Shown: positions 8,899 to 29,000 of the stretch, one piece after another
Numbering within the stretch: position 1 is the stretch's first letter
Layout: each line of letters begins with the position of its first letter
Assembly (NCBI GenBank): GCA_041599855.1
Contig: JBFILE010000001.1
Location: 1 to 35,863 of the forward strand
DNA: 35,863 nt
Source of the DNA: Thermoplasmatota archaeon
Lineage (GTDB): Archaea; Thermoplasmatota; SW-10-69-26; JACQPN01; JAJPHT01
Direction of reading: 5' to 3'
Notes under the pieces: model-generated
The model's database searches: none
What the model saw: the letters and a program-made list of their open reading frames with translations, nothing else
What the model was told of the DNA's origin: nothing
Program-made: the position numbers and the translations under genes

Positions 8899-8975
8899 TG
8901 CACCTCTGGTCCATGGAGTCCGGATCGGCGGTGCCGGTGCGTGGACGACGCGCACCCACGGCGAAGCCGGAGGGG

Positions 8976-10061: not shown

Positions 10062-10091
10062 GGCGACGGGCGGGCAGTTGCGGCGAGGGGC

Positions 10092-10102: not shown

Positions 10103-10353
10103 CCTCGCGCCCACCCGCGGAGGCGGATCCGTGCCCGTGGGCGCAGGCGCGCAGCCGGGAGGCGCGTGCTCCAGCGTGTGCACGCGAACCCGCGCGCAAG
10201 CATCAGGGTCGACCGACCCGGCGTCGCACCCCAGGTCCGACCCCGATGACCGATCGACCCCACCGAGACCCTCCATGGTTGACACGTCCAGTCCTTTGTT
10301 CCCCTCGTCCCCTCCCGACATGGACTTGTCCACCTTGACCATACCTTGTCGCC

Positions 10354-12138: not shown

Positions 12139-12154
12139 ATCGGCCACCCGATTC
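12137..12154. terminator. Hairpin between convergent genes (GAATCGG-CCAC-CCGATTC)
   Basis: Perfect 7-bp stem with a 4-nt loop, overlapping the TGA stop (12136-12138) of the 10354 gene. It lies in the 50-nt gap before the convergent TauE gene. Confidence 0.25.
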
Positions 12155-12188
12155 CGGGACCGGGGATGCGGCCCCCCGCCCGCCCGCG

Positions 12189-12995: not shown

Positions 12996-13134
12996 CCATG
13001 ACGGGCGGGGCATCCATGCCGGGGCGCCGGGGGACGGACGCGTGCCAGCCGGCCGCAACCCCCCTGCACGGGCACAGGTTCGGGTTGACAGACCCGCCAA
13101 GATGGGCGACGCGCGTTTTTCCCCCGGCCGATTG

Positions 13135-13179: not shown

Positions 13180-13899
13180 ATGCCTGCAACCCTGTCCACG
13201 ACGGGGATCTCCGGCCTCGATGCTCAACTTGGCGGCGGGGTCCCCCGAGGATCCACGATCCTGCTCCTGTCGGAGCCAGGCAACGCCATCTCCCTTTTCT
13301 CGGAGCAGTTCGCAGGTGGCGGGCTCATGGTGAATGATCCGGTCACGTACATCGAGATGGATCGCCCGCCTGTTGGCCTTCGGGACAGGATCCTCGCGTT
13401 CAAGCAGGGGAACGGGACCCAACCCCAGCTCGACGTCCACGACGGGTACTCGAGCCAGTTTGCCATCGCGCGGACCGCAGCGAAGCAACCGGGCGTCCTC
13501 GGGATGAAGCGGGAGGACGTGTTCAACACGGCCATCAAGGCCGCCATGAGCGCGGGACAGAATTATCGCCTCGTCATCGAGAGCCTCAGTGGATTCACGC
13601 GCCCCGAGAACGAGGCCAGCGTCGTCGAGTTCGTCCGTAACCTCAGCTTCATCGGCCAGGAATACGGGGGCATGCACATGATCTCCCTCGTGAAGGGCCT
13701 CCACAGCCCCCAGTTCGAGACCCAGTTGCGCCATCTCGCAACAGGTGTCCTCGAGGTCGGGTCCGAGAAGAAGGGGTTCGGGATCTACTCGTACCTCATC
13801 GTCTCGAAGATGCTGAACGTCCGGGATCCGGTCCGCATGCTCCTCTTCAAGGAGACGGACAAGGGATTGTGGCTGGAATCCACGAAGCGGGTGTTCTGA
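13180..13899 (+). CDS. KaiC/RecA-superfamily, ArlH(FlaH)-like protein with a degenerate Walker A motif
   Basis: 239 aa. TGISGLDAQLGGGVPRGSTILLLSEPGNAISLFSEQFA aligns to the KaiC/ArlH pattern tGIpgLDelLgGGlprGs..li.GppGtGKT. Walker-B-like YRLVIESLSGF is present. The P-loop reads S-E-P-G-N-A-I-S and has no lysine. Confidence 0.7.
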   Translation: MPATLSTTGISGLDAQLGGGVPRGSTILLLSEPGNAISLFSEQFAGGGLMVNDPVTYIEMDRPPVGLRDRILAFKQGNGTQPQLDVHDGYSSQFAIARTAAKQPGVLGMKREDVFNTAIKAAMSAGQNYRLVIESLSGFTRPENEASVVEFVRNLSFIGQEYGGMHMISLVKGLHSPQFETQLRHLATGVLEVGSEKKGFGIYSYLIVSKMLNVRDPVRMLLFKETDKGLWLESTKRVF

Positions 13900-13966
13900 T
13901 CCGTGCGGAGGCGGGCGTACTGCTCGCCGTCAGCGGTAAATTGCCCCCTTGGCTCTTCCCGTGCCT

Positions 13967-13978
13967 ACATATAGAGGG
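13967..13978 (+). promoter_or_regulatory. TATA-box-like element (ACATATAGAGGG) upstream of the first prepilin gene
   Basis: A/T-rich box followed by GGG, 22-33 nt upstream of ATG 14000. A second candidate, GGTAAATT, lies at 13935-13942. Confidence 0.3.
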
Positions 13979-13999
13979 TCTTGGCGAGCAGGGGTCTGG

Positions 14000-15163
14000 A
14001 TGTCTGCGGGGTCTGCCAACAACGCATCAGTCTCCCGGCCCCGAATGCCGGCGAGCCATCCGCGCGGAACCATGTTCCGATGGCGGAGCGACGACGGCGT
14101 GAGTCCCGTCATCGGCATGATCATGATCCTCGCCATCTCCGTGGTCGGCGTGAGTGCCGTCCTCGTGTGGGGCCTACCCGCGATCGAATCCATGAAGGAG
14201 CAGGTCGAGTACAAGAGCGTCCAGAACCAGTTCGACGAACTGGATGCGACCGTGCGCGAGCTCGTTGCCGGCACCGCCGGCAAGACCGCGAAACGCTGGC
14301 AACCCTCGCTCTCCCGCGGCGGCATCACGATCGAAGCCAACACGGAACGGTGGCTCGTCGCCACCGACCGCGACGCGAGCTACAATTTCACGTACATCGA
14401 ATTCGTGGACGCCGACAACGCCCTGAAGATCGTGAACCACGGGGCCTCATCCGTGACCATCATGGTGAACGCGTCGCTCGTCGATGGGGCAAGCGAAACC
14501 CTGCTCAACGTGTCGGCGGTTTCCGGATCCTCCATTCCCATGACGACGGCGGGCGCCGTCACGATTGCCAGTGGCGCATCCCAGGAATTCTGGACCTACA
14601 CGACCGTGGGTGTCGCGCGAAGCCACTACGAAGGGACATTCCATTTCGAGATCACGGACTCCACGACCAGCCAGACGGTCGGCGAAGCGTGGATCGTGGA
14701 CACGGGAGCCATCCACTACAAGCTCATCGGCGCCGCCCAACCGAGGCACGTGTACAGTTCCAACGGCGCCATCATCCCGGGCCAGGGCGACGGGTTCTTC
14801 GTGGACAACACGCCGCCCATCCCCGCGCCGCGCACGAGCGCCGGAAGCCACCGGTTCTTCATGCGCACCGTCCAGTTCAACGGCACCGGGTCGTTCTCGG
14901 GTGAAGCCCGCTTCGACGTTCTGTTCAGCCTCTATTCCACCGCGACCCTGTCCGACGAGACGGGCGTGCCCCGGATCAAGATCTACGCGACCGGGAACCT
15001 CACGAACGCGTGGCACACATTCTTCCTCGACGAAGCCCGCGGGTACAACTTCACAACGGTGACCGAGACGGTGGGGAGCGAAGGGCGCACCTACCTGGAA
15101 TACGAATACTCGGGCGGCATGGTGTTCACCCTCGTCCACAGCGTGATCACGGCAAGCACTTGA
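14000..15163 (+). CDS. Archaeal type IV prepilin-like protein (Pilin_N / DUF1628-type N-terminus), ~365-390 aa
   Basis: RSDDGVSPVIGMIMILAISVVGVSAVLVWG is the classic Pilin_N signature (ddrGVSPVIGviLm.aIt). The mature part is beta-rich with 6 N-x-S/T sequons (NFT, NAS, NVS, NGT, NLT, NFT). Start is uncertain: ATG 14000 (fits the TATA spacing), 14045 or 14072 (MFRWRSDDGVSPVIG). TTG 13949 from the ORF track lies upstream of or within the promoter candidates. Confidence 0.7.
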   Translation: MSAGSANNASVSRPRMPASHPRGTMFRWRSDDGVSPVIGMIMILAISVVGVSAVLVWGLPAIESMKEQVEYKSVQNQFDELDATVRELVAGTAGKTAKRWQPSLSRGGITIEANTERWLVATDRDASYNFTYIEFVDADNALKIVNHGASSVTIMVNASLVDGASETLLNVSAVSGSSIPMTTAGAVTIASGASQEFWTYTTVGVARSHYEGTFHFEITDSTTSQTVGEAWIVDTGAIHYKLIGAAQPRHVYSSNGAIIPGQGDGFFVDNTPPIPAPRTSAGSHRFFMRTVQFNGTGSFSGEARFDVLFSLYSTATLSDETGVPRIKIYATGNLTNAWHTFFLDEARGYNFTTVTETVGSEGRTYLEYEYSGGMVFTLVHSVITAST

Positions 15164-15177: not shown

Positions 15178-15681
15178 ATGATCAAACGACGCTCGACAGG
15201 CATCCGCCGGAACGACTCAGGCGTGTCCGAGGTCATCGGTTTCCTCCTGATGTTCGTCATCTCGAGCTTCCTCCTCGTCATCGCCATGTCCACGTTCAAC
15301 AACTCGCAGGACACGAGCGAGGGCGTCGTGACCGCAGTCGAGATGAAGAGTGTCGCCGCGCGCGTCGCAAGCCGCGTCCTCGAAGCGTCCATCGTGGCGC
15401 AGGATTTCCCCAACGCCACCTACGAGATCCAGGTGGACCTGCCGACGCCTCCCAACGACCGCGACTACCGCGTGACACTCACCGCATCCTCGGTGGATGT
15501 GGACACGACGAAAGGCAGCGCCACGGCAACCACGACCACGTACAAGCTGGACGCGATCAACGACCTCGTGCTCTCCGGCGAAGTGTACAGCTACCACAAG
15601 ACCGCCGTCATCCGGTACGCCCCAGTGATCTCGGGCAGCACCCTGACGAAGACCATCACCCTCCTCCCCCTCCAGGACTGA
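15178..15681 (+). CDS. Small archaeal type IV prepilin-like protein (167 aa; candidate major subunit)
   Basis: MIKRRSTGIRRNDSGVSEVIGFLLMFVISSFLLVIAM: short basic n-region plus Pilin_N motif. GGAGGA lies 7 nt upstream of ATG 15178. Confidence 0.75.
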   Translation: MIKRRSTGIRRNDSGVSEVIGFLLMFVISSFLLVIAMSTFNNSQDTSEGVVTAVEMKSVAARVASRVLEASIVAQDFPNATYEIQVDLPTPPNDRDYRVTLTASSVDVDTTKGSATATTTTYKLDAINDLVLSGEVYSYHKTAVIRYAPVISGSTLTKTITLLPLQD

Positions 15682-15685
15682 TACC

Positions 15686-18600
15686 ATGGAACGCTCGATC
15701 AATCTCCGGGAATTCATCCACGCGCTCCGGGACTCGAGCGCCGACGTCCCGCCCGCCCGACTCCTTGCGAACGCGCCCGATGCATGGGCCGCGCTCACGA
15801 CCGACGACCGCGCTGCGATCCTCGCCCATTTCGACATGGCCGACGTGGACGCCGACGCCCTGACCATCGCCATCCGCAAGGTCTCGGATGGACCGTCCAC
15901 GGTGGACAATGTCCGCGTGATCCTGTCATGGCCGGGAGACGACGCCGCGACCGACGGCCACGATTCCGGTGACCAGCGTGCCGACGGTGAAGAGGTTCCG
16001 GCGCAGGAAGGACTCCCGTCAACCGCCCACGGGGAACTGGAAGGTCCGCCTGTGGCGGAAGCCCTCGCCGACGACAGCGGAGAACCCGCCCCGGACCTGT
16101 CGCCCGACATGTCGCCCGGAATGCCGCTGGACGAAGCGCCGGACATGTCGCCCGGAATGCCGCGCGACGACGCGCCGGACATGGCCCCCGCGTCGGACGA
16201 AGGCCACGCCCCAATCGACACCGACCACTTCGCGTTCGACGAAACGACCACCGCCGAGGTCCTGCCGAACGAGGCCTCCGAGGATGGGGCCCAACCGGCC
16301 ACCTTCGAACATTTCGAGGCCCTGGCGGAAGACGCATCCGCCGAGGCCATGATGGCGGAGGGGTTGCCGGAGACCGATGACGCCGTCGAAATGGACGTGT
16401 CTGCGCCTTCCGACAGCGAACCATTCGCGGAATCCGCCCTCGTCCATGCCTCTCCCGATGAGCCGGTTTTCGTGACTGCGGAGGAAGTGCCGGGAACGGA
16501 ACTCGCGGGCCACGGCGTCCTCTCCCCGCCCGGGGCCCATGACCACGCCCCGGGCTACGCCGGTCCCGATTCAAACGCCTCGGCACCCGAGCCCTTCGAC
16601 GATCTCGACGCCATGACGGAAGAGCGGCAGGGCCCGACCGCCCTTGCGATCGTCGATGATGAACCGACCCTGGATGCCGACGCTGGACCCCTCGCCGAGG
16701 AGCCGGAACCGGTCGACCCGGAAACCGGAAGCGCAGCGGCGGAAGCGGGTGCTCCCGCGGACGCCGACACCGACGCCGAAGTCGGGGGCGAACTCCCCCC
16801 CGGCGAGGGCGATCCCTTCGAGGAACCGAAGAAGGGCCTCTTCGGAAAACTCTTCAAGAAAAAAGCTGCGGACGCATCCGATTCCGACGGGCCGATCACG
16901 GTCATCCCGCCCCTTGAGGCCCCCCTCCGCGAGATCGAGGTCTACCCGATCCAGGACCCCTACGCGTTCGTCCGCATCGCCTACGATGACAAGGCGCACG
17001 AGTACGTCTACGAGGTCCTTGAACCGCAGATGGATGAGCGGGAACAGAACATCCTCGAATTCGTCGAGGAGACCCTCGTCGATGTCATCGAGGTCGGCCT
17101 CGCAAAGCTCGGCATGAAGGCCGCCGCCGAGATGCTCACACGGAGCATCGACGAGATCATCTTCGACTACTCCATCGTCCTTTCCCCCAAGTCCAAGGAG
17201 AAGGTCGTGTACTACATCCTGAGGAATTTCCTCGGGTTCGGAAAACTCGACCCCATGATGCGGGACAGTGAGATCGAGGATATCTCGTGCGACGGACCCA
17301 ACATCCCGATCTTCGTGTACCACCGGAAGTACGAGTCGTTCCGCAGCACCATCATGTTCAATGATCATGACGAAGCGGATTCCTTCGTCATCCGGCTCGC
17401 CCAGCGGTCCGGGAAGCACATCTCGATCGCCGAACCCCTGCTCGATGCCACGCTCCCGGACGGGTCGCGTCTGAATGCGACGTTGTCCGACGAGGTTACC
17501 GCGAACGGGTCCACGTTCACCATCCGGAAGTTCAAGCCGGATCCGTTCTCCCCGCCTGACCTTGTCCGCTTCGGCACCATGAATGCCGACATCCTCGCGT
17601 ACTGGTGGCTTGCCGTCCAGAATGGCGCGAGCGCCATCTACGCCGGAGGGACGGCTTCCGGGAAGACGACATCGCTCAATGCGATCCTGCTCTTCATTCC
17701 CGCGCAGATGAAGATCGTATCGATCGAGGATACGCGTGAAGTGAACCTGCCGCACCCGAACTGGATCCCCGGTGTGACGCGATCCGGCTTCGGGCCCCGC
17801 GACTCCCACGGGCGACAAGCCGGTGAGATCGACATGTTCACGCTCCTGAAGGCGGCCCTCCGCCAGCGGCCGGAATACATCCTCGTGGGTGAAGTGCGTG
17901 GCGCCGAGGCGTACGCCCTCTTCCAGGCCATGGCCACGGGCCACACGGCCTACGGGACCATGCACGCGGACTCGGCGGAAAGCGTCATCCACCGGTTGGA
18001 ATCGAGCCCGATCTCCATCCCGCGGAGTCTCCTTGAAGCCCTCGACATCGTCTCCATCCAGATCCAGACCCGCATCGGGGAACGCCGCGTGCGCCGCACC
18101 AAGGAACTCATCGAGATCGTGGGACTCGACCCCCATACCCGGGAGATCCTCACGAACGAGGTGTTCTCGTGGCATCCCGCCACGGATGAATTCGAGTTCA
18201 GCGGCGTCTCGTACGTCCTTGAGCGCATCCAGATGGAGCGGAACATGAGCGCCCACGACATGCGCCTCGAATTCGACGACCGGAAGCTCGTCATCGACTG
18301 GCTCATCAAGAAGGAGATCAACGATTACCTCGAAGTCGCCCACGTGATCCAACGCTACTACAAGGAGAAGGACAAGCTCATGGAGGAGGTCCGCCGCGAC
18401 ATGGAGGACGCACCGGTGGCCGATGAGCCGATGGCGGCGGATGACGCGTCGGACGACGAGCCCTTCGAGTTCGACGCCACTCCCCCGGATCATGAGAACG
18501 TCCTCGAACGCGGCGACCATGACCTCCTCGAAGCCGGCGATCCGGACCGCCTCGAACCCGGGGACCCGGATCTCCTTGAAGCCGGGAACGGCGACCTCCT

Positions 18601-18838
18601 CGAAGCCGGGAACGGCGACCTCCTTGAGAGCGGCGGATTCACGGCCCTGCCGAGCGAGGTCCCGAGCCCCGAGGAATCCCTCCACCGGGGCGACGGGGAT
18701 TCCCCGGATGCCGAAGGCGGCGCGGACGCGGCAGATGCGACCGACGACCGCAGGGACCACGGCCTTGTGGCGCCGTTGAACAGGAAGAAGAACGGGTCGC
18801 CCGACGGCGAGAACGGGGAGGGCGAGCGTGGCGCTTAA
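15686..18838 (+). CDS. ArlI/FlaI/PilB-family type IV filament secretion ATPase, with a ~400-aa N-terminal extension and a ~130-aa acidic repeat-containing C-terminal tail
   Basis: The core starts near residue 400 (ITVIPPLEAPLREIEVYPIQDPYAFVRIAYDD...YEVLEP). IEDISCDGPN...; Walker A AGGTASGKTTSLNA; Walker B KIVSIEDTREV; PEYILVGEVRGAEA; His box GHTAYGTMHA. ATG is 4 nt after the stop of the preceding pilin gene. Confidence 0.85.
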   Translation: MERSINLREFIHALRDSSADVPPARLLANAPDAWAALTTDDRAAILAHFDMADVDADALTIAIRKVSDGPSTVDNVRVILSWPGDDAATDGHDSGDQRADGEEVPAQEGLPSTAHGELEGPPVAEALADDSGEPAPDLSPDMSPGMPLDEAPDMSPGMPRDDAPDMAPASDEGHAPIDTDHFAFDETTTAEVLPNEASEDGAQPATFEHFEALAEDASAEAMMAEGLPETDDAVEMDVSAPSDSEPFAESALVHASPDEPVFVTAEEVPGTELAGHGVLSPPGAHDHAPGYAGPDSNASAPEPFDDLDAMTEERQGPTALAIVDDEPTLDADAGPLAEEPEPVDPETGSAAAEAGAPADADTDAEVGGELPPGEGDPFEEPKKGLFGKLFKKKAADASDSDGPITVIPPLEAPLREIEVYPIQDPYAFVRIAYDDKAHEYVYEVLEPQMDEREQNILEFVEETLVDVIEVGLAKLGMKAAAEMLTRSIDEIIFDYSIVLSPKSKEKVVYYILRNFLGFGKLDPMMRDSEIEDISCDGPNIPIFVYHRKYESFRSTIMFNDHDEADSFVIRLAQRSGKHISIAEPLLDATLPDGSRLNATLSDEVTANGSTFTIRKFKPDPFSPPDLVRFGTMNADILAYWWLAVQNGASAIYAGGTASGKTTSLNAILLFIPAQMKIVSIEDTREVNLPHPNWIPGVTRSGFGPRDSHGRQAGEIDMFTLLKAALRQRPEYILVGEVRGAEAYALFQAMATGHTAYGTMHADSAESVIHRLESSPISIPRSLLEALDIVSIQIQTRIGERRVRRTKELIEIVGLDPHTREILTNEVFSWHPATDEFEFSGVSYVLERIQMERNMSAHDMRLEFDDRKLVIDWLIKKEINDYLEVAHVIQRYYKEKDKLMEEVRRDMEDAPVADEPMAADDASDDEPFEFDATPPDHENVLERGDHDLLEAGDPDRLEPGDPDLLEAGNGDLLEAGNGDLLESGGFTALPSEVPSPEESLHRGDGDSPDAEGGADAADATDDRRDHGLVAPLNRKKNGSPDGENGEGERGA
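16103..16200 (+). repeat. 36-nt in-frame tandem repeat in the ATPase N-terminal extension
   Basis: PDMSPGMPLDEA / PDMSPGMPRDDA / PDMAPASDEG. At the DNA level, ggacatgtcgcccggaatgccgc occurs twice. Confidence 0.8.
18515..18634 (+). repeat. Five 24-nt in-frame tandem repeats in the ATPase C-terminal tail
   Basis: DHDLLEAG / DPDRLEPG / DPDLLEAG / NGDLLEAG / NGDLLESG. gaagccgggaacggcgacctcct is duplicated exactly. Confidence 0.85.
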
Positions 18839-19703
18839 CGAGTTTCAGCGGGTATCGTACAAGATGTTCGGCGGCGCCGTCTCCAACATGGGGAACGTGG
18901 CCAAACTCAAGGACGACCTCAGGCAGGCCCACCTCGGCATCCGGGCGGAAGCGTTCCTAGCGACCAGCTTCGTGATCGCCGGCATATCGACACTCCTCAG
19001 TCTCGTCCTCGCGTTGCTCGCGTACACCATCCTCCTGCCCCTCGCAGGAATCGCACTGCCGCCCCTTGCCATCGTGGGCGTCATCATGTTCCCGATCTTC
19101 GTCGGCCTCATGGCCTACGTGTCCACGGTTGCCGGGCCCGCGTCCCGCGCCAAGGCGCGGTCCAAGGACATCGACATGAAGATCCCGTACGCGCTGAACT
19201 ACATCGCGGCAATGGCCAGCGCCGGGGTCCAGCTCGACGAGATGTTCCGGTCCCTTGCGAACCAGAAGATCTACGGGGAGTGCGCGCGGGAAGCCGAACG
19301 GCTGTACCGTGACATGGCCTACTTCGGACGCGATTCCGTGAGCGCCATGAAGCTCGCCATCGGACGGTCGCCGTCCGAGAAGTGGACGGAATTCCTCCAG
19401 GGCGCCATCACCACCGTCACGAGTGGCGGCGACCTGCAGGTGTACTTCCAGGCCAAGGCGCAGCGGTACATGTGGGAGAACCGCCAGGAACAGAAGGCCT
19501 TCGTCGAGATGATGGGGCTCATGGCGGAAACGTATGTGACCGCGTGTGTGGCCGGCCCCCTCTTCCTCATCGTCATGATGGCGATCATGGGCATGATGGG
19601 AGGCGGCGGACCCGGTCAACTGCTCCTCATCGTGTACGGGCTCCTGCCCATTGCGAATGCCGGTTTCGTCTTCGCCCTCCAGGCGATGACCCCGGAGGTG
19701 TGA
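18828..19703 (+). CDS. Type IV filament platform protein, single T2SSF domain (ArlJ/TadB-like half)
   Basis: N-terminal TM helices, a cytoplasmic T2SSF-like domain (IPYALNYIAAMASAGVQLDEMFRSLA...SAMKLAIGRSPSEKWTEFLQGAITTVTSGGDLQVYF), then 2 C-terminal TM helices. GTG start with GGGGAGGG 6 nt upstream. Overlaps the ATPase stop by 11 nt. Confidence 0.75.
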   Translation: MALNEFQRVSYKMFGGAVSNMGNVAKLKDDLRQAHLGIRAEAFLATSFVIAGISTLLSLVLALLAYTILLPLAGIALPPLAIVGVIMFPIFVGLMAYVSTVAGPASRAKARSKDIDMKIPYALNYIAAMASAGVQLDEMFRSLANQKIYGECAREAERLYRDMAYFGRDSVSAMKLAIGRSPSEKWTEFLQGAITTVTSGGDLQVYFQAKAQRYMWENRQEQKAFVEMMGLMAETYVTACVAGPLFLIVMMAIMGMMGGGGPGQLLLIVYGLLPIANAGFVFALQAMTPEV

Positions 19704-19706
19704 TCC

Positions 19707-22319
19707 ATGAACGGGAACGCGAACCGGGGAGAAGCGCCGACCGAACCGCAACAGGACGCGCCGGAAGCGGGCCGCCTGCCACCCACGGGACTCCTCGCCG
19801 ACCCCCGGCGACTCGCAAGGATTGCGAAGATCATGGGATTCACCGCGGCGATCGTCGCGGTTTCCGCCGTCCTCGTGAGCCTGTTCGTGTCCCCCACGGG
19901 GGCTGTCCTCGTCCTTGGACTCGCACTCGCGATGGCCACCGTGCCGGTGGTCGCATTCGCCCTCGCACCCCTCCCGCAGGTGGACGAGGCGGACGAGGAA
20001 CTCGCGTTCCGGGGCGACCTGTTCCTCAACGGATACACGATCGTCCTGTCGATCGCGTTCCTGACCCTCGGGCTCATCAACGTGCTCGCGATCTTCGCCG
20101 CATTCGGGGCGTTCCTCGTCTTCGGCGATTTTGCCGAGAACTTCGTGAACCTGTTCGTGGTCGTCCTCGCGGGCCCCGTCGGACTCCTCGCCCTTGCCAT
20201 CCCGCTCGCGGCAACGTCCAACACGAAGGGCGCCCGACGCCTCAGCCGGCAGGCGCTCCAGGCAACGTGGATCACTCTCGGCGCGACCGCACTCCTCGGC
20301 GTCCTGACACTCGGGACGGCCTTCGGCGCCCTCGATGCCCTCGGCATCGGGTTCATGAAATCGTCGCGCGCGAGCTTCGTGCTCGCGTTCGCAGCCATCA
20401 CCGCGTACCTTGCGGCCCGGAACACGCTCCGCCTCCCGGACCTGAGGGCGGTCGCGGAATGGATCGAGCATGAGCCGCGGTTCCGTGATTCGAACATCCC
20501 GAAAGCCACGGTCATCGCGGCAAGCGCCCTCTCCGGCCTCGCCGTCATCCTCAGCCTCCTCGCCGGCTTCGGCGTGCTCCCGGAAACCACGGCCATCTAC
20601 GCCGTCGTGGGTGCCATCGCGACCATCCTCGTGGCCGCATTCTCCATGGGCGTGACCCACGTGGAGACCCGCCTCGAATTCGGGGAAGGCGTGGAGGGCG
20701 CGCGACACCTGCGCAAGCTCATCCTGGGCACACTCAGCGTCGCCCTCGGCCTCCTCGCACTTGTCCTTGCCATCGTGACCGGCCTCGCGTTCCTCGCGCA
20801 GGTGGCCAACGTCGCACTCTTCAAGGACCTGCTGCGCCTGTTCGTGGACAACCATCCGCTCATCCTCGCCCTGGCCCTCCTGCCGCTTCTTGCCACTGTG
20901 ATTGCGCGTGTCTACGTGCCCACGGACGTGAAGTACACGGAGCGCGCCAAGGCCCTGAGCGCCGTCCTCGTCACTGTCATCGCCGTCAGCACATTCTACG
21001 GTGGATTCATCGGAAGCGGCCTCGCCCAAGGCGCCGGCATCGAACTCTCGAATGCGGTCCTGATGCTCTCGACCGCGGTCATCGCGCTCACCCTGTTCGT
21101 CAAGATCCGTGCCCTCCTGCCCGGCATCGTCAGCATGATGCGGGAGCGCATCGACGCGAGCGCGGAAGCGGACACGACCACGAAGGAGACCATCCGACGG
21201 AACATGATCGCCACATACGTGGTGAGCACCGTGCTCCTCCTCGCGTTCACCGGCGTCATCGTGGCCGCGAGCCTCGGCGTCCTCCCCGTCCAGGAGGGCG
21301 TCGCCTTCGACCTCACGCTTTTCGGCGTCTTCGTCGGCGGCATCATCCTCCTCGTCGTCCTCGTGATGAGGTACTTCCAGGGCGTCAACATCGACCCCCA
21401 GTGGGCCAAGAAGCAGAAGGAGGAGGACATCGGGAAGAAGCGGCTCACGCCCGAGGAACTCAACCGGTACCTCATCCTCGGATTCAGCAGCGTCGTCGCG
21501 GTCACGCTGACCACGTACGGTGCCCTCGTCTACGCCGAGATCTTCAACGCCCTCGGCCCCATCGACCTCGAGAAGCAGCATGCGACCGACTTCTTCGTGT
21601 TCGCGCTCCTCCTCGGTCTCGGCCCGTACGGCTGGTACCAGAACAAGGAGGCTGCCCGCATGCGGGCCATCGACAGCAAGTTCCCGGAATTCCTCCGCGA
21701 CCTCGCAGAGAGCGAGCGCAGCGGGATGACCCTGACCCAGGCCGTCGTGACGGCGTCCAAGGGGAACTACGGGGCCCTCACCTGGGAAATCCGCAAGATG
21801 GGTGCCCAGATCGAGTGGGGCATCTCGTTCACCGAAGCCATCGAACGCTTCGCCAAACGCGTCCGCACGCCCCTCATCGAACGCACCGTGAGCCTCATCG
21901 TGGAAGCCTCGAATGCGGGAGGCAGCGTCATGGACGTCCTCTCGGCAGCGGCGGAGGACAGCCGCGAGATCCAGCTCATCCTGAAGGAACGGAAGGCCTC
22001 GATGAGCATCTACGTGATGATCATCTACGTGGCATTCTGCGTGTTCGTGGGCGTCGTCGCCATCCTGAACGCCATGTTCATCCCCGAGGTCGCAAAGGCC
22101 ATGGCGAACGCGGATGGTGTGAAGATCGGGGGCGTCACGTTCCAGAAGTTCGACGAGGGCGCGTTCAAGATCGTGTTCTTCCACGCCGCCATCATCCAGG
22201 GCCTCGGCGGCGGACTCGTGGCCGGAGTGATGGAGGGCGGAAAGCCCGTGAACGGGCTCAAGCACGCATTCATCATGATCATCATCGCATACGTGGTGTT
22301 CCGGTTCCTCCTGATCTGA
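19707..22319 (+). CDS. Type IV filament platform protein, second T2SSF domain (ArlJ/TadC-like half), fused to a ~580-aa polytopic N-terminal membrane domain
   Basis: About 17 hydrophobic helices by eye. Then FPEFLRDLAESERSGMTLTQAVVTASKGNYGALTWEIRKMGAQIEWGISFTEAIERFAKRVRTPLIERTVSLIVEASNAGGSVMDVL (T2SSF signature) and 3 more TM helices. GGAGGTG lies 7 nt upstream of the ATG. 3-nt gap after the previous gene. Confidence 0.75.
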   Translation: MNGNANRGEAPTEPQQDAPEAGRLPPTGLLADPRRLARIAKIMGFTAAIVAVSAVLVSLFVSPTGAVLVLGLALAMATVPVVAFALAPLPQVDEADEELAFRGDLFLNGYTIVLSIAFLTLGLINVLAIFAAFGAFLVFGDFAENFVNLFVVVLAGPVGLLALAIPLAATSNTKGARRLSRQALQATWITLGATALLGVLTLGTAFGALDALGIGFMKSSRASFVLAFAAITAYLAARNTLRLPDLRAVAEWIEHEPRFRDSNIPKATVIAASALSGLAVILSLLAGFGVLPETTAIYAVVGAIATILVAAFSMGVTHVETRLEFGEGVEGARHLRKLILGTLSVALGLLALVLAIVTGLAFLAQVANVALFKDLLRLFVDNHPLILALALLPLLATVIARVYVPTDVKYTERAKALSAVLVTVIAVSTFYGGFIGSGLAQGAGIELSNAVLMLSTAVIALTLFVKIRALLPGIVSMMRERIDASAEADTTTKETIRRNMIATYVVSTVLLLAFTGVIVAASLGVLPVQEGVAFDLTLFGVFVGGIILLVVLVMRYFQGVNIDPQWAKKQKEEDIGKKRLTPEELNRYLILGFSSVVAVTLTTYGALVYAEIFNALGPIDLEKQHATDFFVFALLLGLGPYGWYQNKEAARMRAIDSKFPEFLRDLAESERSGMTLTQAVVTASKGNYGALTWEIRKMGAQIEWGISFTEAIERFAKRVRTPLIERTVSLIVEASNAGGSVMDVLSAAAEDSREIQLILKERKASMSIYVMIIYVAFCVFVGVVAILNAMFIPEVAKAMANADGVKIGGVTFQKFDEGAFKIVFFHAAIIQGLGGGLVAGVMEGGKPVNGLKHAFIMIIIAYVVFRFLLI

Positions 22320-22555
22320 GGCCATGGCCGGTCGTCGCGGATGGCCCACGTGAGCCGCCGCGTCGGCTGACCTCCACGGGTGAGGTCCCCCGCCTTGATT
22401 CGCAGCGCGAGGCACCGTGGGCGGTGAGCGCGGGGACCGGGCGCCGGGGAAGAACAGCCGTGGCGCCGCTGCGTCCACGTCCCGCGCAACGGTCCATCCG
22501 CAGGAACCTTGGAGGGCCACCGGGGCACAGGGGCCCCGGAGCCACGAGGGCAACG

Positions 22556-22600: not shown

Positions 22601-25192
22601 TTGTCAACGGGTCGAACACGTGCCAAGGTCCGCCCTCCGCCCCAGCGGACGCCCCGCAGCATCGCCCGTGACGACTCCGGCAACATGATCCTGCTTGCCG
22701 GCATCGTCCTCGCCCTGGCTCTTGTGACCACCTCCATCGGCCTCACCCAGTTGAACGAGGCCGCCGGCGATTCCTCCGACACGAGCAAGACCACCTTCGT
22801 CGAGGAATGGCGCTTCATCCGGGAGCGCACGCGGGACGTGTACGCGAGCGCCATCGGGCTCACGAGCGACGCCTCCTCCGTCCACGAGGTCCTGAACACC
22901 ACGGTCCTCGAACTCGAATTCCTGCAGAACGGCCGAGGCTTCGACATGATCGCCATCCCCGCGAACGGGAGCGCCCCAACGAGTGAGTTGGATCTCGTGA
23001 ACGGGGCCAACCGGTACGATGACCTCGTGACGCTGGACGGGAAACGCCTCTACGGCGCGTACGACGGAACGAACGACGGCTACATCTGGACCGACGGCGG
23101 CGCGGGCTACCTCCAGGCCGTGGTCCTCTACTACTATTTCTCGAACACGCAGATGAACCTCACGGAGATCGCCATCATCTCCGTGAATGCCGAACCCTCG
23201 GGGGCTCCCACCGCGCCCCGGTATCTGGACCTGAACAGCGGCATTCCGTCAGGCGTGAGCGTTGGCGCCGGGAATGCCGCCTACGTGACCCTCGACTGGA
23301 ACGCGCCCGCATCCCCCGGCGGCGGACCCATCCGCAGCTACACGATCTACGCGGACAACACCCTGATCGCCACCGTGGACGGCGACGTCTACACGTACAA
23401 CGACACCGCGAGGATCCAGGGGACACTCGTCGACTACGCGGTCCGCGCAAACAACGCGTACGGAGCGAGTGACTCGGCCAGCGGCAACATCACCCCCGGT
23501 CAACCCCCGTACGCCCCTTCCGGCCTGACCGCAACCCCGGACGACACCGGGATCGACCTGTCATGGTCCGCACCTGCATCCGGAAGTGCCTCCCTGACGG
23601 GCTACTACCTGTACCGCGGAACAAACCCGTCCGCACTCGGCTACCTGTCCTCGACGGGCTCGTCCACGACCACCTACGAGGACAACACCGCAGTCCCCGG
23701 CACTTCGTACTATTACGCCGTCCGCGGACGCAGCGCCGTCGGTAGCGGGTCGAGCGCCACGGTGGGACCCGTGGTCCGCGTGGACGAGCCCGGGGCACCC
23801 AGATTCCTCATCGCAAACGCAGGAAACACGAACGTCACGGTCACCTGGTCCGCGCCCCAGAATGATGGCGGCGCCGCCATCACCGACTACCACGTGGCAC
23901 GAGGACCGTCCGCCGCGTCCCTGACCCGGATCGCGTCGGTCGGCACCGCACTGCAGTACCTCGATACGGGCTTGACCAACACCCAGCAGTACTACTACGC
24001 GATCACCGCCGAGAATACGGCTGGGGAGGGACCGGGAACCACGGCCGTGGCAGCCACCCCCCAGGAGGCTCCGTCCCCCCCGAACAACCCTCTCGCAACG
24101 CCTTCCGGCGGGTCGATCACCCTCACGTGGGACGCGCCGACATTCGTCAACGGGACGATCAGTGCGTATCGCGTATACAACGAAACCGGCGCGAGCCCGG
24201 TCCTGATGACCCAGGTGGCCACAACATCGGCCACCCTGACCGGACTCCACAACGGGTACACGTATTCCCTCTCCGTGTCGGCCGTTTCAACCGGTGGAGA
24301 GGGTGCCTCGACCATTCCCCTCGCCGCCATCCCCTGGCAGCCTGCTGCAGCCCCCACGTCCTTGACGGCGACGCCGGACAACGGCGAGAACGACCTCACA
24401 TGGACCCTGCCAACCGACACCGGCGGATTCCCGATCACGGCGGTGCGGGTATACGGTGGCGCCACGGATCCGCCTACGACCCTCATCGCGAGCATCGCCC
24501 CCGGCACGTCGTACAGCCACACGACCGTGGTGGCCGGGGTCACGTACCACTACCGGGTGGCCGCCGTCACCACGCACGGCGAGGGCACCCGCTCCAGCGT
24601 GGCAAGTGCCACCGCCGCGACTGCTCCCGGTGTGCCGCTGCTGCCGGCGGCCGTCGGGTCCCCGGCCCGCATCGATGTCTCATGGACACCCCCGACCCTT
24701 GACGGATGGTCCCCGATCACGAACTACAAGATCTACCGGGGAACCTCGCCCCTGTCGCTGTCGCTCCTTGCAACCGTCGGGGACACGTCCTCCTACGCCG
24801 ACACGAGCGTGACCAACCTCGTGACCTACTACTACACCATCTCGGCGGTGAACGCACTCGGTGAAAGCGCGCAATCGACAGTCACGAGTGGCATGCCCGT
24901 GGGGGCTCCGTCGGCGCCGCTGAACCTGGCCGCCGTGGGCCTCGCCCTCCGGATCGATCTCACGTGGGATGAGCCGGCGAGCGACGGGGGTAGTGCCATC
25001 ACGTCGTACCGCGTGTATGGCGGAACATCGCCCAACCCGACGGTGCTCATTGCAAGCGTGAGCGCGCCGACGCTGTCGTACTCGGCGACGGTTCCGGCCC
25101 TCGTGACATGGCACTACCGGGTCACGGCCGTGAATGCCGAAGGGGAAAGCACGTACTCGAACGAAGTGTCGGCCATGGCCACGCTCATCTGA
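22601..25192 (+). CDS. Pilin-like N-terminus fused to a ~190-aa domain and seven fibronectin type III domains (863 aa)
   Basis: N-terminus ...RSIARDDSGN-MILLAGIVLALALVTTSIG. Seven ~90-aa repeats each carry W (LDWNAP, LSWSAP, VTWSAP, LTWDAP, LTWTLP, VSWTPP, LTWDEP), Y.(I/V/L)Y and YYY/Y.V...N..GES, which are FN3 hallmarks. TTG 22601 is the only in-frame canonical start that retains the conserved D-x-G-N motif. ATG 22686 is the alternative. The rest of ORF 21401-25192 is an out-of-frame overlap with the platform gene. Confidence 0.7.
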   Translation: MSTGRTRAKVRPPPQRTPRSIARDDSGNMILLAGIVLALALVTTSIGLTQLNEAAGDSSDTSKTTFVEEWRFIRERTRDVYASAIGLTSDASSVHEVLNTTVLELEFLQNGRGFDMIAIPANGSAPTSELDLVNGANRYDDLVTLDGKRLYGAYDGTNDGYIWTDGGAGYLQAVVLYYYFSNTQMNLTEIAIISVNAEPSGAPTAPRYLDLNSGIPSGVSVGAGNAAYVTLDWNAPASPGGGPIRSYTIYADNTLIATVDGDVYTYNDTARIQGTLVDYAVRANNAYGASDSASGNITPGQPPYAPSGLTATPDDTGIDLSWSAPASGSASLTGYYLYRGTNPSALGYLSSTGSSTTTYEDNTAVPGTSYYYAVRGRSAVGSGSSATVGPVVRVDEPGAPRFLIANAGNTNVTVTWSAPQNDGGAAITDYHVARGPSAASLTRIASVGTALQYLDTGLTNTQQYYYAITAENTAGEGPGTTAVAATPQEAPSPPNNPLATPSGGSITLTWDAPTFVNGTISAYRVYNETGASPVLMTQVATTSATLTGLHNGYTYSLSVSAVSTGGEGASTIPLAAIPWQPAAAPTSLTATPDNGENDLTWTLPTDTGGFPITAVRVYGGATDPPTTLIASIAPGTSYSHTTVVAGVTYHYRVAAVTTHGEGTRSSVASATAATAPGVPLLPAAVGSPARIDVSWTPPTLDGWSPITNYKIYRGTSPLSLSLLATVGDTSSYADTSVTNLVTYYYTISAVNALGESAQSTVTSGMPVGAPSAPLNLAAVGLALRIDLTWDEPASDGGSAITSYRVYGGTSPNPTVLIASVSAPTLSYSATVPALVTWHYRVTAVNAEGESTYSNEVSAMATLI
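23198..25189 (+). repeat. Array of seven divergent FN3-encoding repeats (~270-290 nt each)
   Basis: Periodicity is at the protein level, as described for the CDS. The DNA copies are diverged and I saw no long exact repeats. Confidence 0.7.
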
Positions 25193-25830
25193 CGAATCGG
25201 ATCGGATTCGCGCGGGGGCGCGGGGGCGCGCGCCGCGGAACCCGGAACGGCCAAAGAGAACGGGGGAAATCAACCATCCGAATCAACAGCAATGAACCGG
25301 AACCACTCGATGATGCAGGCCACTTCCTGCTCCTGGCGGGGATCATCCTCGTCCTCGCGTTCACCGCGAGCGCCTACACCTACAGCCTTGTCACGGACCT
25401 GAATGCGTCCACGGCGCGGGACCAGGATGCCGGCCTCGTACCGGATTACCGGTTCATCCATGAGCACATGCGTGCCACCGTCCACTCGGGCACAAACAGC
25501 GATCTTTCCAACACGAGTGCCCTGGCACTCTTCGAATCCTCGGAAGCCACCATCCGCACCCTGGCCATCTCGCGCGGTCTCGAAGTGAGCCTCACCCTCG
25601 CCGGGAACAGTTCGGGCGCGGTCCGGGATGAGTATGACATCGGAGCCGGCGGCTGGGACTTCATCACCGATTATTTGGGAGCAACCCTGAGCGGCGATTA
25701 TGACGGCGGCAACGACGGCCTGCTGTGGCTGGGAGACTCCACGGGCCGCGTCCAGGCACTGGCGTATGAAATCCAGGTCCGGGACGACCGGATGACCGTG
25801 CAGGAAACCGTGATCCTCGCGGTGGATTAG
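25108..25830 (+). CDS. Small pilin-like protein (second N-terminal class); start codon unresolved
   Basis: ...NEPEPLDDAGH-FLLLAGIILVLAFTASAY aligns with the N-termini of the 22601, 26082 and 31025 proteins. The only canonical in-frame start upstream of this motif is ATG 25108. That start overlaps the previous gene by 85 nt and gives a ~70-aa basic leader. Confidence 0.55.
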   Translation: MALPGHGRECRRGKHVLERSVGHGHAHLTNRIGFARGRGGARRGTRNGQRERGKSTIRINSNEPEPLDDAGHFLLLAGIILVLAFTASAYTYSLVTDLNASTARDQDAGLVPDYRFIHEHMRATVHSGTNSDLSNTSALALFESSEATIRTLAISRGLEVSLTLAGNSSGAVRDEYDIGAGGWDFITDYLGATLSGDYDGGNDGLLWLGDSTGRVQALAYEIQVRDDRMTVQETVILAVD

Positions 25831-25993: not shown

Positions 25994-26007
25994 TTAAATA
26001 AGGGAAG
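25994..26007 (+). promoter_or_regulatory. TATA-box-like element (TTAAATAAGGGAAG)
   Basis: Best TATA match in the window. If it is real, the GTG at 26007 cannot be the start, and ATG 26082 is the first start downstream of the expected TSS. Confidence 0.4.
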
Positions 26008-26081
26008 TGGGAGAGACGCAAGTCGGCGGACGTGCTGCAAGGCCTCTTCAATCGAGCTTCCAGCCCCCGCCGCGTGATACC

Positions 26082-29000
26082 ATGGGCGACGCAGGGAACA
26101 TCCACGTACTTGAAGCGATCCTCATCGGGATTGTCATGGTTGGTGCCATCAGCTTCGTCATCACGTTCGACGCGCCCACCACGACCACCGAACCGGAGCG
26201 TCGCGCCCTCGAGGAATCCGGGACGGACGCATTGAACATCATCTACGAGACCCCGCTCACCGATGTCCGATACGGCAACAACACATTGTCCAAGTTCATC
26301 GCCCTCGCCCTCCAGGGGAATACCGGACCCTTGAGCACGCGATTGGAGGAACTCCTCCCACCGGCGACCGCCTACAACGTCTACATCAACAACGGCTACG
26401 GGTCGCTGCCCGTGTACGTGAGCCATGAACCGTCCGGTGAGACCGTCACGTCCTCGAAACTCCTCGAACCGAAATGGACGTACGTGTTCACGGAACGCTC
26501 GCACTTCGTCACGTCGACCCCCACCAGTCTTGGGGTGTATGCGTTGCCCGTGTACAACTCGAACCCCGTCGATGATGGCGGTGTGCCCCTCGCCGTCCAC
26601 TTCTCGGGAATCATCCGCGACAGCGGCAGGACCTTCAACCTCACCTCGTACTATTCCACGATCCAGGGTGGCCCCGGGTCGATCACCACCAACGTCGGGC
26701 TGCATCTCCTGAACTCCGAAGGCGAAGCCATCACCCTCGTCGACCGGTCCTCGACGGACAACACGACCTACTACGTGGGCTACGAGGACGTGGCATCGTA
26801 CGGCCTCCCGACGGGAACGAAACTCATCATCCAGATCCCCCGGGGCTTCGACGTCACCGTGACCGCTGCCGAGAACGAGGACTGGACGATCCTCGAGACC
26901 GTGACCGGCAACTCCACGGGCGGCCGCATCGTCGCGGAACTCGCATCCACACTGAACCCCACGAAAGGCCATTTCGTGTTCCACATGGACAACGTCGTCG
27001 ACCTCTACGATTTCCACCAACTCGACATGCGCCTCGCCGGCACCGTCCAAGGCCGTGCGGAGGCCGTGATCCAGGTCCGGGATTCACCCGTCCCGACAGG
27101 CGGCGACTTCCATGGCGTGTACGCGTCCATCCCGAAACCCATGGGGAACGGCGAAGCCAACCAGTGGCTCGTCGGGTTCCTGAATCCGCGGAGCCTGATC
27201 ACGACGGCGAACGCGACACTCCTTGCCGGACTCGACCCGGATGACCCCGAAATCCAGGCGTCATCCCGGTCGATCACCCTCACCCACGTCCAGATCCGAC
27301 AGCCGGAAGGGAAATCCCTTTTCTCCGGCGTGAGCGTCCTGAATGGCGAGCCCGGGTGGTCCGTCACGTCCGCGTCGCGCCTCGACTGGACGGGGGAGCT
27401 GAACCTGACCTCGAATTCCATGGAGGAATGGACGCTGCAGGTCACCGGCACCGGAACCGGCACCCGCCGGGAGATCCGGAACTACGTGAACGTGGACGCC
27501 AACGTCGGATCCCACACGGAGACCCTCACCCGCCGCATCCTGCCTGCCGTATTCTACGACAATGTGCTCCCCGAAGGCGCGGTGCTGCCGTTCACCGGGT
27601 ACGAAACGACCGTCGGCAACGGGTACGCCCTCACCACGAACGCCATCCACCGCGGCGTCAACATCCCGGGATCCTGGCACTACAACATCACGCCGGTCGC
27701 GATCGAGCGCGACAACCTCAACCTCGTGAACATCACGCTCGAGGATACCCTCGTCCCCATCGGTTCGAGCGCCTACGTGAATGTGGACAACCACAACCTG
27801 CTCCTCACCCTCGCGGACCTCGGCATCCCCGCGACGACCACGTTCCGCGTGTATGCACCCTACGGTCTCGACAACCACACGGCTATCGAGACCTCATCCA
27901 TCACCGAGGGCGATGTCATGTCGTCCGGCGTTGCGAAGCTCCTCGTCCGGGATGTGAACGCCGACGGCGTCCAGGACGTCATCGTCGCCACCACAACCAA
28001 CAAGATCTTCGTCCTCGACGGCCGGACCGGCAGCAAGATGAGCGGGTACCAGTTGGCGCTCGATTCCTATCTGGAGGCCCAGGGATTGCCCACCGCGAAC
28101 ATGGGTGACCTGTCGATCATGACCGCGGCCCAGATCGACGGTGACACCGTGTATCTCCTGGGCATGGCGCAAGGGAAGCCGAACGTCTTCGCCATCAATG
28201 CGGACTTCACCGTCCGTTGGGCCCAGAGCACGTCCGCATCCTACGCAACCTACGAAGTGCGCGGATACACGGGGATCCCCGCCACCTTCGACGGGTTCGA
28301 CATCACGGCCATCGATGCCTCCGCGGACGTGAGCGGCGACGGGATCGCAGACGTGCTCGCGGCCGACTCGAACGGCATCGTCTTCGCATTCAACGGAACC
28401 ACGGGCGACCTCGTCCCGTCCTGGATCTACGACACCTCGGCCGAACGGGCTCTCGTCCGGGGCGGCGTCATCGGACAGGCGGCGACCGACGGTTGGTTCG
28501 TCACCACGGGCTCGGGCAGCAGTGTCGGACTGTCGCAACCGATCAACCTGACCGCGGGCACATACACGACGGACCCGGGCGCAGCGCTCACCGCGGAACT
28601 CCAGAAACCGTACGTGGACAACCGGAACCCCGGTCTTGTGGCCATCGGCCCGAACCGCGAAACACTCTGGTTCGTGAACGGTGGAAGTTTCGATGTGATC
28701 GACGCCGCCGACATCGACAATGACGGAGTCACGGATTTCGTGGGCGGTGCAGCGGACGGGTTCGTCTATGCCTACAACGGTACCCAATCCTCATTCCCGC
28801 TCTACGGCGAAATGTTCGCCACGGGAACCGAGATCGTGGACGTGGCTTGGCTGGATGCGGACACGGGATGGTCCGTGAGCAATGACGGGTACTTCATGTT
28901 CACGACAGACGGGTGGACGACACGGACGTACTACATGGACGAAGTGGCCGCGTACTATGCGTTCCCGGGTGCGAACACCTTGAGCTTCGCTGACGCGAAC

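Follow-up and report, generated by a model that had tools for sequence, protein, structure and literature searches.

How is the inner-membrane platform of a type IV filament machine organized when its two halves are encoded by separate genes, and what is the nature of a large membrane domain carried by only one of them? These questions are raised by a pilus-like locus of a Thermoplasmatota archaeon (GenBank assembly GCA_041599855.1, contig JBFILE010000001.1, positions 1 to 35,863), here analysed as a single stretch of 35,863 nucleotides (nt), hereafter designated as the window. Of the core parts of type IV filament machines, the platform protein is the least understood, and the way in which the assembly ATPase is coupled, via the platform, to the extraction of pilins from the membrane is still debated. 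An original prediction, made from the letters of the window, pointed to a platform protein divided between two TadB/TadC-like genes, the second of which begins with a long additional membrane domain. As developed below, the split is a known kind of arrangement; the new part is the extension, which is real, rare, and endowed with a defined architecture. The anatomy and the evolutionary history of the pair, as described here, are put forward with high confidence.

Platform gene 1 (18828..19703, plus strand) opens with GTG and encodes a product of 291 amino acids (aa) that is the equivalent of the N-terminal half of ArlJ or of the haloarchaeal PilC. Platform gene 2 (19707..22319, plus strand) follows after 3 nt, opens with ATG, and encodes 870 aa, with a 14-helix N-terminal extension preceding a T2SSF module of the C-terminal-half type. 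Each product has a single Pfam T2SSF domain (PF00482, gathering cut-off 25.2 bits), located at aa 123-250 in the first (63.1 bits) and at aa 662-787 in the second (66.2 bits), and both are thus members, by score, of the superfamily comprising GspF, PilC, TadB/TadC, and ArlJ. On this point, coordinates and Pfam agree with the two genes of 291 and 870 aa, 3 nt apart and with one T2SSF repeat each, that had been predicted. The NCBIfam ArlJ model NF004704 (555 positions) is matched by gene 1 over positions 14-249 and by gene 2 over positions 212-542, indicating collinearity of the pair with the N- and C-terminal halves of a standard platform protein. The core second-half module of gene 2 (21420..22319, plus strand; aa ~572-870) consists of two transmembrane (TM) helices, the cytoplasmic T2SSF bundle, and three TM helices, and is equivalent to stand-alone partners of 296-304 aa found in other genomes. 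The structural model of gene 2, the one of the two products for which the fold was assessed, displays the cytoplasmic helical bundle and its flanking TM helices, and its T2SSF domain matched the cytoplasmic domains of EpsF and OutF with a Foldseek probability of 1.00 and a TM-score of 0.69-0.79 on the target. Several polar TM residues of this core (D628, Y769, Y774, H826, and Q831) are identical in 14/14 sequences, and three others in the core helices (N788, E794, and K797) are kept in 11-12 of the 14. The genomic context is also that of the superfamily, with an assembly ATPase gene (15686-18838) whose last 11 nt, stop included, are shared with the start of gene 1, and with pilin-like genes on both flanks. 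From this gene layout, we infer a heteromeric inner-membrane platform, equivalent to PilC or ArlJ, made of two subunits encoded by genes 1 and 2.

Genes 1 and 2 share the same reading frame, and only the stop codon TGA (19701-19703) and the triplet TCC lie between them, in the sequence ...CCG GAG GTG TGA TCC ATG. This shared frame sharpens the question of an error or a read-through, since two ORFs (open reading frames) divided by a TGA and one codon could also be the trace of a sequencing or assembly error, of a recent nonsense mutation creating a pseudogene, or of a TGA that is read through or recoded. The junction was therefore compared between the window and 26 related loci in which both genes were located (n = 27), these loci having been collected by contig look-ups and by a scan of species-representative genomes with a six-sequence alignment. 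In 27/27 loci, gene 1 forms an ORF of its own, about 290 aa long, that stops at the identical codon, for which TGA, TAA, or TAG is used, and gene 2 starts no more than about 5 nt after this stop, in the same frame or in a different one. In many loci gene 2 lies in another frame than gene 1, at a distance of 1, 2, 4, or 5 nt; this leaves no room for read-through. In one case (L013) the two genes overlap by 4 nt. The nearest relative, L001, with an identity of 83% in gene 1 and 71% in gene 2, illustrates the situation well: gene 1 stops after ...M-T-P-E-V, as in the window, and a GTG restart follows four nt on in another frame. Read-through of the TGA, or its recoding for selenocysteine, was ruled out, given that the restart of relatives lies in other frames and that TAA or TAG also serves as the stop among them.

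Homologues of the separate halves are found in their hundreds at sizes of ~290 and ~300 aa. Full-length matches to gene 1 come from more than 120 protein clusters of 287-300 aa, so that the split is the rule in this Thermoplasmatota lineage, and the C-terminal module of gene 2 has its counterparts in about 100 stand-alone clusters of ~300 aa. In the complete Thermoplasmatales genome CP070798.1, the ATPase and two T2SSF proteins of 257 and 296 aa are encoded in series. Given the same-codon stops in 27 loci, the varied frames, and these many stand-alone homologues, an assembly error, pseudogenisation, or stop read-through is for all practical purposes excluded, and an explanation of this type retains next to no likelihood. 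The possibility of a frameshift or assembly artefact, raised together with the original prediction, can thus be set aside.

The junction itself has the appearance of a functional translation signal. A Shine-Dalgarno-like GGAGGTG (19694..19700, plus strand) lies within the last codons of gene 1 (P-E-V) and ends 6 nt before the ATG of gene 2, a proper spacing for initiation that also speaks against an accidental stop. GGAG or GGAGG occurs in the last gene 1 codons at most junctions, and GAAGGTG takes its place in three loci. A Shine-Dalgarno motif inside the last codons of a gene, followed by its stop and then by the next start, is the classic layout of translational coupling, and the gene layout suggests that the pair is translationally coupled and that the two products would be made in similar amounts. 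As part of the best explanation of the locus, and with the moderate confidence attached to it, the split probably represents an old and fixed gene fission, placed in the cytoplasmic loop that joined the two T2SSF repeats of an ancestor resembling the haloarchaeal PilC or ArlJ.

The original prediction implied that a split platform is an oddity in archaea. This was not borne out, since a two-gene archaeal platform is a documented arrangement. Denise et al. 2019 (PMC6668835) described Tad and archaeal Epd-like systems with two platform genes having one T2SSF domain each, argued that this two-gene platform came from the fission of a two-repeat platform gene, and equated the N half with TadC and the C half with TadB. 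Makarova et al. 2016 (PMC4858521) listed two TadC genes for clade 1 and for the Thermoproteales clade 4B, reported two tadC-like genes in many clade-2 euryarchaea, in which KaiC-like ATPases accompany the loci, and suggested that clade 1 (Epd) derives from an ancestral euryarchaeal system. According to a 2026 preprint (10.64898/2026.04.22.720090), system 1 and subsystems 4A and 4B have two platform genes each, and system 2 has one. For clade or system 2, the published numbers are thus at variance (two genes in many loci for Makarova et al., one for the preprint), and the present locus has two.

To which side of this radiation the two halves belong was addressed with profiles built from about 60 gene 1 homologues and about 60 short gene 2 homologues, which were scored on annotated comparators. 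On the Salinibaculum platform protein (701 aa), the gene 1 profile matched the N half with 108 bits and the gene 2 profile the C half with 123 bits; on the platform protein of Haloferax mediterranei pHME505 (674 aa), the corresponding values were 120 and 100 bits, and cross matches on these haloarchaeal proteins did not exceed 11 bits. On the Tad pair of R. albus, the first gene scored 16.1 bits with the gene 1 profile and 47.6 bits with the gene 2 profile, and the second gene 9.4 and 26.1 bits, respectively. Both Tad proteins prefer the gene 2 profile, and there is therefore no one-to-one mapping to TadB and TadC. The accompanying ATPase scored 410.6 bits on the NCBIfam FlaI model (cut-off 550) versus 160.5 bits on the TadA model (cut-off 373), and PilB3_N and PilB3_C domains are on record for the ATPases of relatives. 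Based on the half-by-half profile scores, the FlaI and TadA scores, and the PilB3 domains of relatives, the system, as judged from its sequences, falls, within the archaeal radiation, on the side of the archaellum and the haloarchaeal pili and not with Epd/Tad.

The likeness to TadB/TadC put forward in the original prediction is consequently one of architecture: two adjacent genes with one T2SSF domain each, the layout of the TadB/TadC and EpdJ/K class, are conserved in the 27 loci. It does not extend to specific orthology (<= 48 bits versus 100-123 bits), the profile scores on one Tad pair revealed no TadB/TadC-specific relationship of each half, and the ATPase, by its model scores, is not of the TadA type. 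These data also bear on the origin of the two-gene state, which might have been inherited from the ancient fission that gave Epd and TadB/TadC. Two tadC-like genes in many clade-2 loci and the suggested derivation of Epd from an ancestral euryarchaeal system (PMC4858521) would be in line with such an inheritance. It is nevertheless rather doubtful, given the scores of the halves on their haloarchaeal counterparts and on the bacterial Tad pair, the lack of a one-to-one mapping, and the preference of the ATPase for the FlaI model; moreover, the order here is N half then C half, when the examined Tad locus has the best C-half match first. A separate fission within this lineage appears to be the more economical reading of these sequences, and would make this lineage a second, possibly independent, archaeal case in which the two platform repeats are separate, coupled genes.

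Among the annotated comparators, the single-gene platforms of the haloarchaeal PilB3/PilB4-type systems (clade or system 2) are the closest sequence relatives. Beyond the collinear, half-by-half matches, their loci resemble the present one in having an ATPase that has extra regions at its N and C termini ahead of the platform, several pilin-like genes, and large adhesin-like proteins, and the following attributes of a clade-2 (PilB3/PilB4-type) locus are found here: extended ATPase, several pilin-like genes, large adhesin-like proteins, and KaiC. In contrast to the present pair, the haloarchaeal platform is one polypeptide of ~670-700 aa, with only ~90 aa linking its two aligned halves; in the window, these halves are separate proteins, the second of which has an additional ~570 aa, with 14 helices, at its N-terminus. 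ArlJ (FlaJ) is the best-scoring curated family for both halves (NF004704), and a KaiC/ArlH-like and a FlaI-like ATPase are encoded nearby. However, ArlJ is one protein of ~550 aa, and with 79.8 bits for gene 1 and 63.2 bits for gene 2, against an equivalog cut-off of 550, the split protein is not an ArlJ/FlaJ equivalog. Neither archaellin, ArlF/G, ArlCDE, nor ArlX was found by Pfam among the ~20 large ORFs scanned (small ORFs were not exhaustively covered), and these large ORFs do not have the context of an archaellum locus.

As with TadB/TadC of bacterial Tad systems and EpdJ/EpdK of Epd (system 1), two adjacent single-T2SSF genes lie beside an assembly ATPase gene, and by analogy a heteromeric working mode is expected to be shared with these pairs, for which the separate-gene repeats of Thermoplasmatota may offer a useful test of the heteromer models made for TadB/TadC. 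Unlike in Tad, the ATPase is FlaI/PilB3-like rather than TadA-like, and in the examples seen the Tad/Epd subunits are ~290 aa each, without a large added membrane domain. Among the ORFs examined, all of 80 aa or more, no short pilin of the Flp type was found; the pilin-like genes recognised are of at least 167 aa. A match in layout is provided by Thermoplasmatota pairs without the extension (e.g., CP070798.1, 257 + 296 aa), which are split alike, follow the ATPase with gene 1 ahead of gene 2, and share the junction design (GGAG motif, stop, and start a few nt later). These pairs differ in their second subunit, which has 296-304 aa and 3-5 hydrophobic segments, and in that the set formed by KaiC, DUF7289, DUF7266, and the BNR giant (see below) was not detectable around them by tblastn.

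It is the extension that distinguishes the second subunit of the window. Judged by length against the 296-304-aa partners of related genomes, the hydrophobic, all-helical extension spans ~570 aa. Based on hydropathy, on AlphaFold2 (AF2) helices taken as TM segments, and on the positive-inside rule, gene 2 has 14 extra TM helices (6 + 6 + 2), 16 before the cytoplasmic T2SSF domain, and 19 in total, with the N-terminus inside. Over 14 sequences, K+R amount to 14.9 in 105 aa of cytoplasmic loops versus 1.9 in 58 aa of external loops. The topology model places the T2SSF bundle of gene 2 inside the cell, as its function requires. The '~580-aa, ~17-helix' domain of the original prediction was thus of the right order and is indeed membrane-embedded by hydropathy, AF2 helices, and positive-inside bias, but AF2 and the positive-inside rule revise it to ~570 aa and 14 extra helices.

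No motif had been recognised in this region, a view that has to be revisited since the extension is a tandem duplication of a ~228-aa six-helix module, completed by one hairpin. Repeat A (19803..20441, plus strand; aa 33-245) comprises six TM helices (AF2 helices 33-60, 63-86, 97-135, 140-170, 181-205, and 219-241) ending in R-x-LP, and is followed by a cytoplasmic amphipathic helix. Repeat B (20496..21131, plus strand; aa 264-475) reproduces the six-helix pattern at an offset of ~230 aa (AF2 helices 264-287, 293-313, 329-367, 370-403, 412-436, and 447-468) and has R468 and P472. The additional hairpin (21174..21392, plus strand; aa 490-562), formed by TM13-14 (AF2 helices 490-522 and 532-562), joins the repeats to the core. 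Aligned by hhalign, aa 30-245 and aa 246-480 gave a probability of 98.8% (E = 1.4e-16, score 111, 208 columns), when reversed profiles scored 17-18 and thirty block-shuffled controls at most 42 (median 30). Other pairs of TM-rich segments remained at a probability <= 4.5%; among them, segment C (aa 481-650) showed no relationship to A or B, giving no evidence of a partial third repeat. With HMMER, the repeat-A profile detects the repeat-B region in the window protein (1.2e-11) and, with values down to 2.8e-16, in other proteins, and the repeat-B profile detects repeat A with up to 5.2e-17. P244 of repeat A aligns with P472 of repeat B, both being conserved and part of the R-x-LP motif. A single-sequence self-dot-plot of gene 2 gave no repeat above shuffled controls, the duplication being visible only to profile methods.

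The six-helix pattern also appears twice in the full-length AF2 model of gene 2 (predicted local distance difference test (pLDDT) 70.1, predicted template modelling score (pTM) 0.54), in which the linker between extension and core (aa 561-582) has a pLDDT <50. The domain-only model (aa 28-485) reached a pLDDT of 83.4 and a pTM of 0.78, with all five models at 78-83. The lack of a counterpart in standard platform proteins was confirmed. The extension had no match in Pfam, and PDB sequence searches with both platform proteins returned nothing significant. A PDB fold search with the whole chain gave T2SSF-domain hits (the cytoplasmic domains of EpsF/OutF) and noise only, and the search with the domain-only model yielded a best E-value of 0.52, probabilities <= 0.20, and TM-scores <= 0.25 with the exception of 0.31 for a 159-residue target. 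The Foldseek comparison thus bears out, for the PDB, a fold that is not recognised. Mean column conservation of gene 2 is 0.42 in aa 1-600 versus 0.76 in aa 601-870. There is no conserved charged residue in the cores of the twelve repeat helices, and the only polar repeat-helix positions kept in at least 70% of the sequences are R336 (10/14, apparently at a cytoplasmic helix end) and T358. The best-conserved spots of the extension are loops, namely the external FIGSGLAQGxGI of repeat B (aa 433-446; FIGSGLAQGAGIE) and, on the cytoplasmic side, R-x-LP together with the amphipathic helix bearing W252.

The extension is rare. When 1.84 billion representative proteins were exhaustively scanned by HMMER with aa 1-520 as query, only nine clusters were retrieved, of which all full-length ones have 785-876 aa and three shorter ones look like fragments. 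In the literature searched, no platform protein was found to be described with a large multi-helix extension. Length statistics were drawn from the HMMER scan and the loci, leaving out a word-indexed protein search whose index seems to under-report long targets and would give misleading length distributions; used with the C-terminal 271 aa of gene 2, this search missed the 870-aa protein itself and an 863-aa relative, and with the full 870 aa it gave just the query protein and a single relative.

Across the loci, gene 2 products fall into size classes of 296-304 (3-5 hydrophobic peaks), 378, 631-638, and 763-888 aa. The 378-aa relative P0128 has one extra hairpin followed by 'AKKRMSKAELNRF', which matches 'GKKRLTPEELNRY' at aa 576-588 of the window protein, and the 638-aa form has a single copy of the six-helix module by HMMER. 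These forms suggest a stepwise growth in one sub-lineage, in which the N-terminus of gene 2 would have gained a two-helix hairpin, then a six-helix module, which would finally have been duplicated in tandem. Since the number of added helices is even, the T2SSF bundle stays cytoplasmic at each step. Capture of a neighbouring membrane gene was considered as a source of the module and rejected for the fetched loci, in none of which a stand-alone ORF matched the repeat profiles. The long form is accompanied by a set comprising KaiC, DUF7289, DUF7266, the small pilin, and the BNR giant, and the short form shares, at the sensitivity of tblastn, only the ATPase and the two T2SSF genes. In three records, the long platform gene is found in metagenome-assembled genomes labelled 'Proteobacteria bacterium' or 'Halobacteriales archaeon' (L010, JAJPHT010000022.1; L016, JAIVGT010000171.1; L020, CAYVRY010000139.1), and these contigs are probably mislabelled or mis-binned.

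That such an extension belongs to the functional protein may be questioned in a genome of 65% GC, where spurious long ORFs are common, all the more so as the extension is weakly conserved: an internal start would then give a partner of ~300 aa, and the upstream 570 codons would be a chance or decaying frame. This is very improbable, since the frame is open in at least 14 lineages although their extensions are only 20-64% identical, with hydrophobic periodicity, positive-inside bias, and repeat structure all preserved. The AF2 domain model is confident (pLDDT 83), and the gene 1 stop, the Shine-Dalgarno motif, and the start codon lie directly at the 5' end of the long frame. Separately, a 1198-aa frame is open on the minus strand (18957-22553), antisense to both platform genes and without homology support; it is best explained by the 65% G+C of the sequence, and ORF length alone therefore means little here.

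Taken as a whole, the locus is best explained, with moderate confidence, by a heteromeric split platform, a stepwise gained membrane module, and a structural role of this module. Genes 1 and 2 would together provide the platform core of a Thermoplasmatota type IV filament machine, with the 12-14 extra helices forming a peripheral outrigger, scaffold, or anchor that widens the membrane footprint of the platform. Such an outrigger might steady or anchor the machine, or serve as a dock for the very large pilin-like subunits encoded downstream. The extension is read as structural, rather than catalytic or involved in transport, because of its fast evolution, the helix cores devoid of conserved charges, and a self-contained fold connected by a low-confidence linker, and its conserved loops would be sites of protein contact; the scaffold or anchor role itself, inferred with the help of structural models, is put forward only tentatively.

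Several points weigh against this explanation. The scaffold or anchor role is an argument from absence (of conserved polar residues and of known folds), and the conserved FIGSGLAQGxGI loop, R-x-LP, and W252 could be a specific functional site. The packing of the extension against the core is poorly predicted (full-length pTM 0.54; linker pLDDT <50), both AF2 models were built on shallow alignments of 10-11 sequences, and the fold search covered the PDB only. The heteromer and the translational coupling are deduced from gene layout, and the TM helices were counted by means of hydropathy, AF2, and the positive-inside rule rather than with a dedicated predictor.

One competing view makes the 2 x 6-helix extension a channel or a module for transport (a MOP/MATE-like or MFS-like 6+6 carrier, a flippase moving glycolipids for pilin glycosylation, or an ion path) that would be fused to the platform in such a way that transport is coupled to filament assembly. 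Two parallel six-helix repeats are a layout common to many secondary transporters, and a few MATE, Otop, and TRAP entries appeared at the bottom of the whole-chain fold search. These matches are noise, however (probability <= 0.16, RMSD (root-mean-square deviation) >17 Å), and the weak MATE/Otop lead vanished with the confident domain-only model, which leaves no MATE or MFS hit. Together with the absence of a Pfam match, the twelve helix cores without conserved charged residue, the conserved polar positions limited to R336 and T358, and the low column conservation (0.42), this makes a transport function improbable. The structural reading may also be taken further than the tentative scaffold or anchor: the duplicated 2 x 6-helix domain might be an undescribed membrane fold with a new mechanical role, either as a stator or anchor against the torque of the ATPase, or as a corral feeding the 835- to 1672-aa pilin-like adhesins, a possibility that we consider rather unlikely. 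If true, this Thermoplasmatota sub-lineage would run a structurally distinct class of type IV filament motor.

Whatever its role, the extension provides a natural variant in which one platform subunit has tripled in size through a self-contained membrane domain, with living intermediates of about 300, 378, 635, and 850 aa that record the growth steps. It exemplifies how a polytopic membrane protein may grow by hairpin accretion and module duplication while its topology is kept, and represents a candidate new membrane fold, restricted to uncultured Thermoplasmatota of soil and hypersaline sites. The general picture of type IV filament machines is unchanged, the split itself being textbook-level for archaeal pili, and the interest of these findings for the fields of type IV filaments and membrane-protein evolution is moderate.

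The platform pair is embedded in a conserved cluster whose gene order is repeated in L001, L002, and L004, and whose content looks like that of an adhesion-type type IV filament system. The first gene of the cluster (13180..13899, plus strand), preceded on the minus strand by a Pfam TauE gene (12189-13100), encodes a KaiC/ArlH-like ATPase of 239 aa (PF06745 KaiC, 54 bits; weak DUF7125) that is present at the corresponding position in the same three loci. It is followed by two pilin-like genes conserved in the long-class loci. The first (13949..15163, plus strand) is a 404-aa ORF with a DUF7289 match (43.3 bits), a weak Pilin_N match, and an N-terminus with a class-III-signal-like segment (...DDGVSPVIGMIMILAI...). 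The second (15178..15681, plus strand) encodes a small DUF7266 protein (26.8 bits), the likely start of which is the ATG at 15178, the mechanical ORF running from 15010, with relatives of 162-186 aa.

The FlaI/PilB3-type secretion ATPase (15686..18838, plus strand; 1050 aa) has a T2SSE domain (113.9 bits) and a PilB3_C match of 22.8 bits, under the cut-off of 27. Its N-terminal extension of ~420 aa (15686-16950) is strongly acidic and of low complexity, with a 36-nt repeat (PDMSPGMP...) at 16101-16190, and its C-terminal tail (18386-18838) is acidic, with a 24-nt repeat (...LLEAGDPD...) at 18501-18624. The ATPases of relatives range from 739 to 1050 aa, indicating that these tails vary quickly.

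Downstream of the platform genes, a pilin-like protein of 835 aa (22685..25192, plus strand) carries six FN3 domains (fn3, 158 bits over 6 stretches) behind the N-terminus MILLAGIVLALALV..., and a small pilin-like protein (25108..25830, plus strand; ORF of 240 aa with an uncertain start, relatives of 176-191 aa) contains ...DDAGHFLLLAGIILVLAF... and has no Pfam match. Next comes a giant pilin-like BNR/beta-propeller protein of 1672 aa (26007..31025, plus strand; PSII_BNR 51.5 bits, weak N-terminal DUF7262 and DUF7288), a probable adhesin by its sequence, with a 1640-aa counterpart in L002. Five of the proteins encoded in the cluster (13949-15163, 15178-15681, 22685-25192, 25108-25830, and 26007-31025) start with a short charged stretch ending in D-[DS]-[GA] and continue with a long hydrophobic helix, a combination resembling an archaeal class III (prepilin) signal. 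Within the window, no gene for a prepilin peptidase was noticed.

The remainder of the window is ordinary chromosome, with SMC, ScpA/B, an E1 dehydrogenase, and a PKD/cupredoxin protein. Large ORFs at 7111-8955 (minus strand), 10354-12138 (plus strand) or 9829-12975 (minus strand), and 30884-32218 (plus strand) had no Pfam match at E <= 0.001, the coding strand being ambiguous over 9829-12975. As far as checked, no relation to the pilus cluster was seen for an 815-aa product (33382-35829, minus strand) with a cupredoxin domain followed by six PKD domains, which is a probable surface redox or adhesion protein. At the other end of the window, a chromosome-condensation cluster on the minus strand comprises ScpB (92-1093), ScpA (1100-2344), and a 1537-aa SMC ORF (2478-7091), in which about 258 additional N-terminal residues precede the SMC_N domain and may correspond to an upstream mis-start or to an acidic extension.

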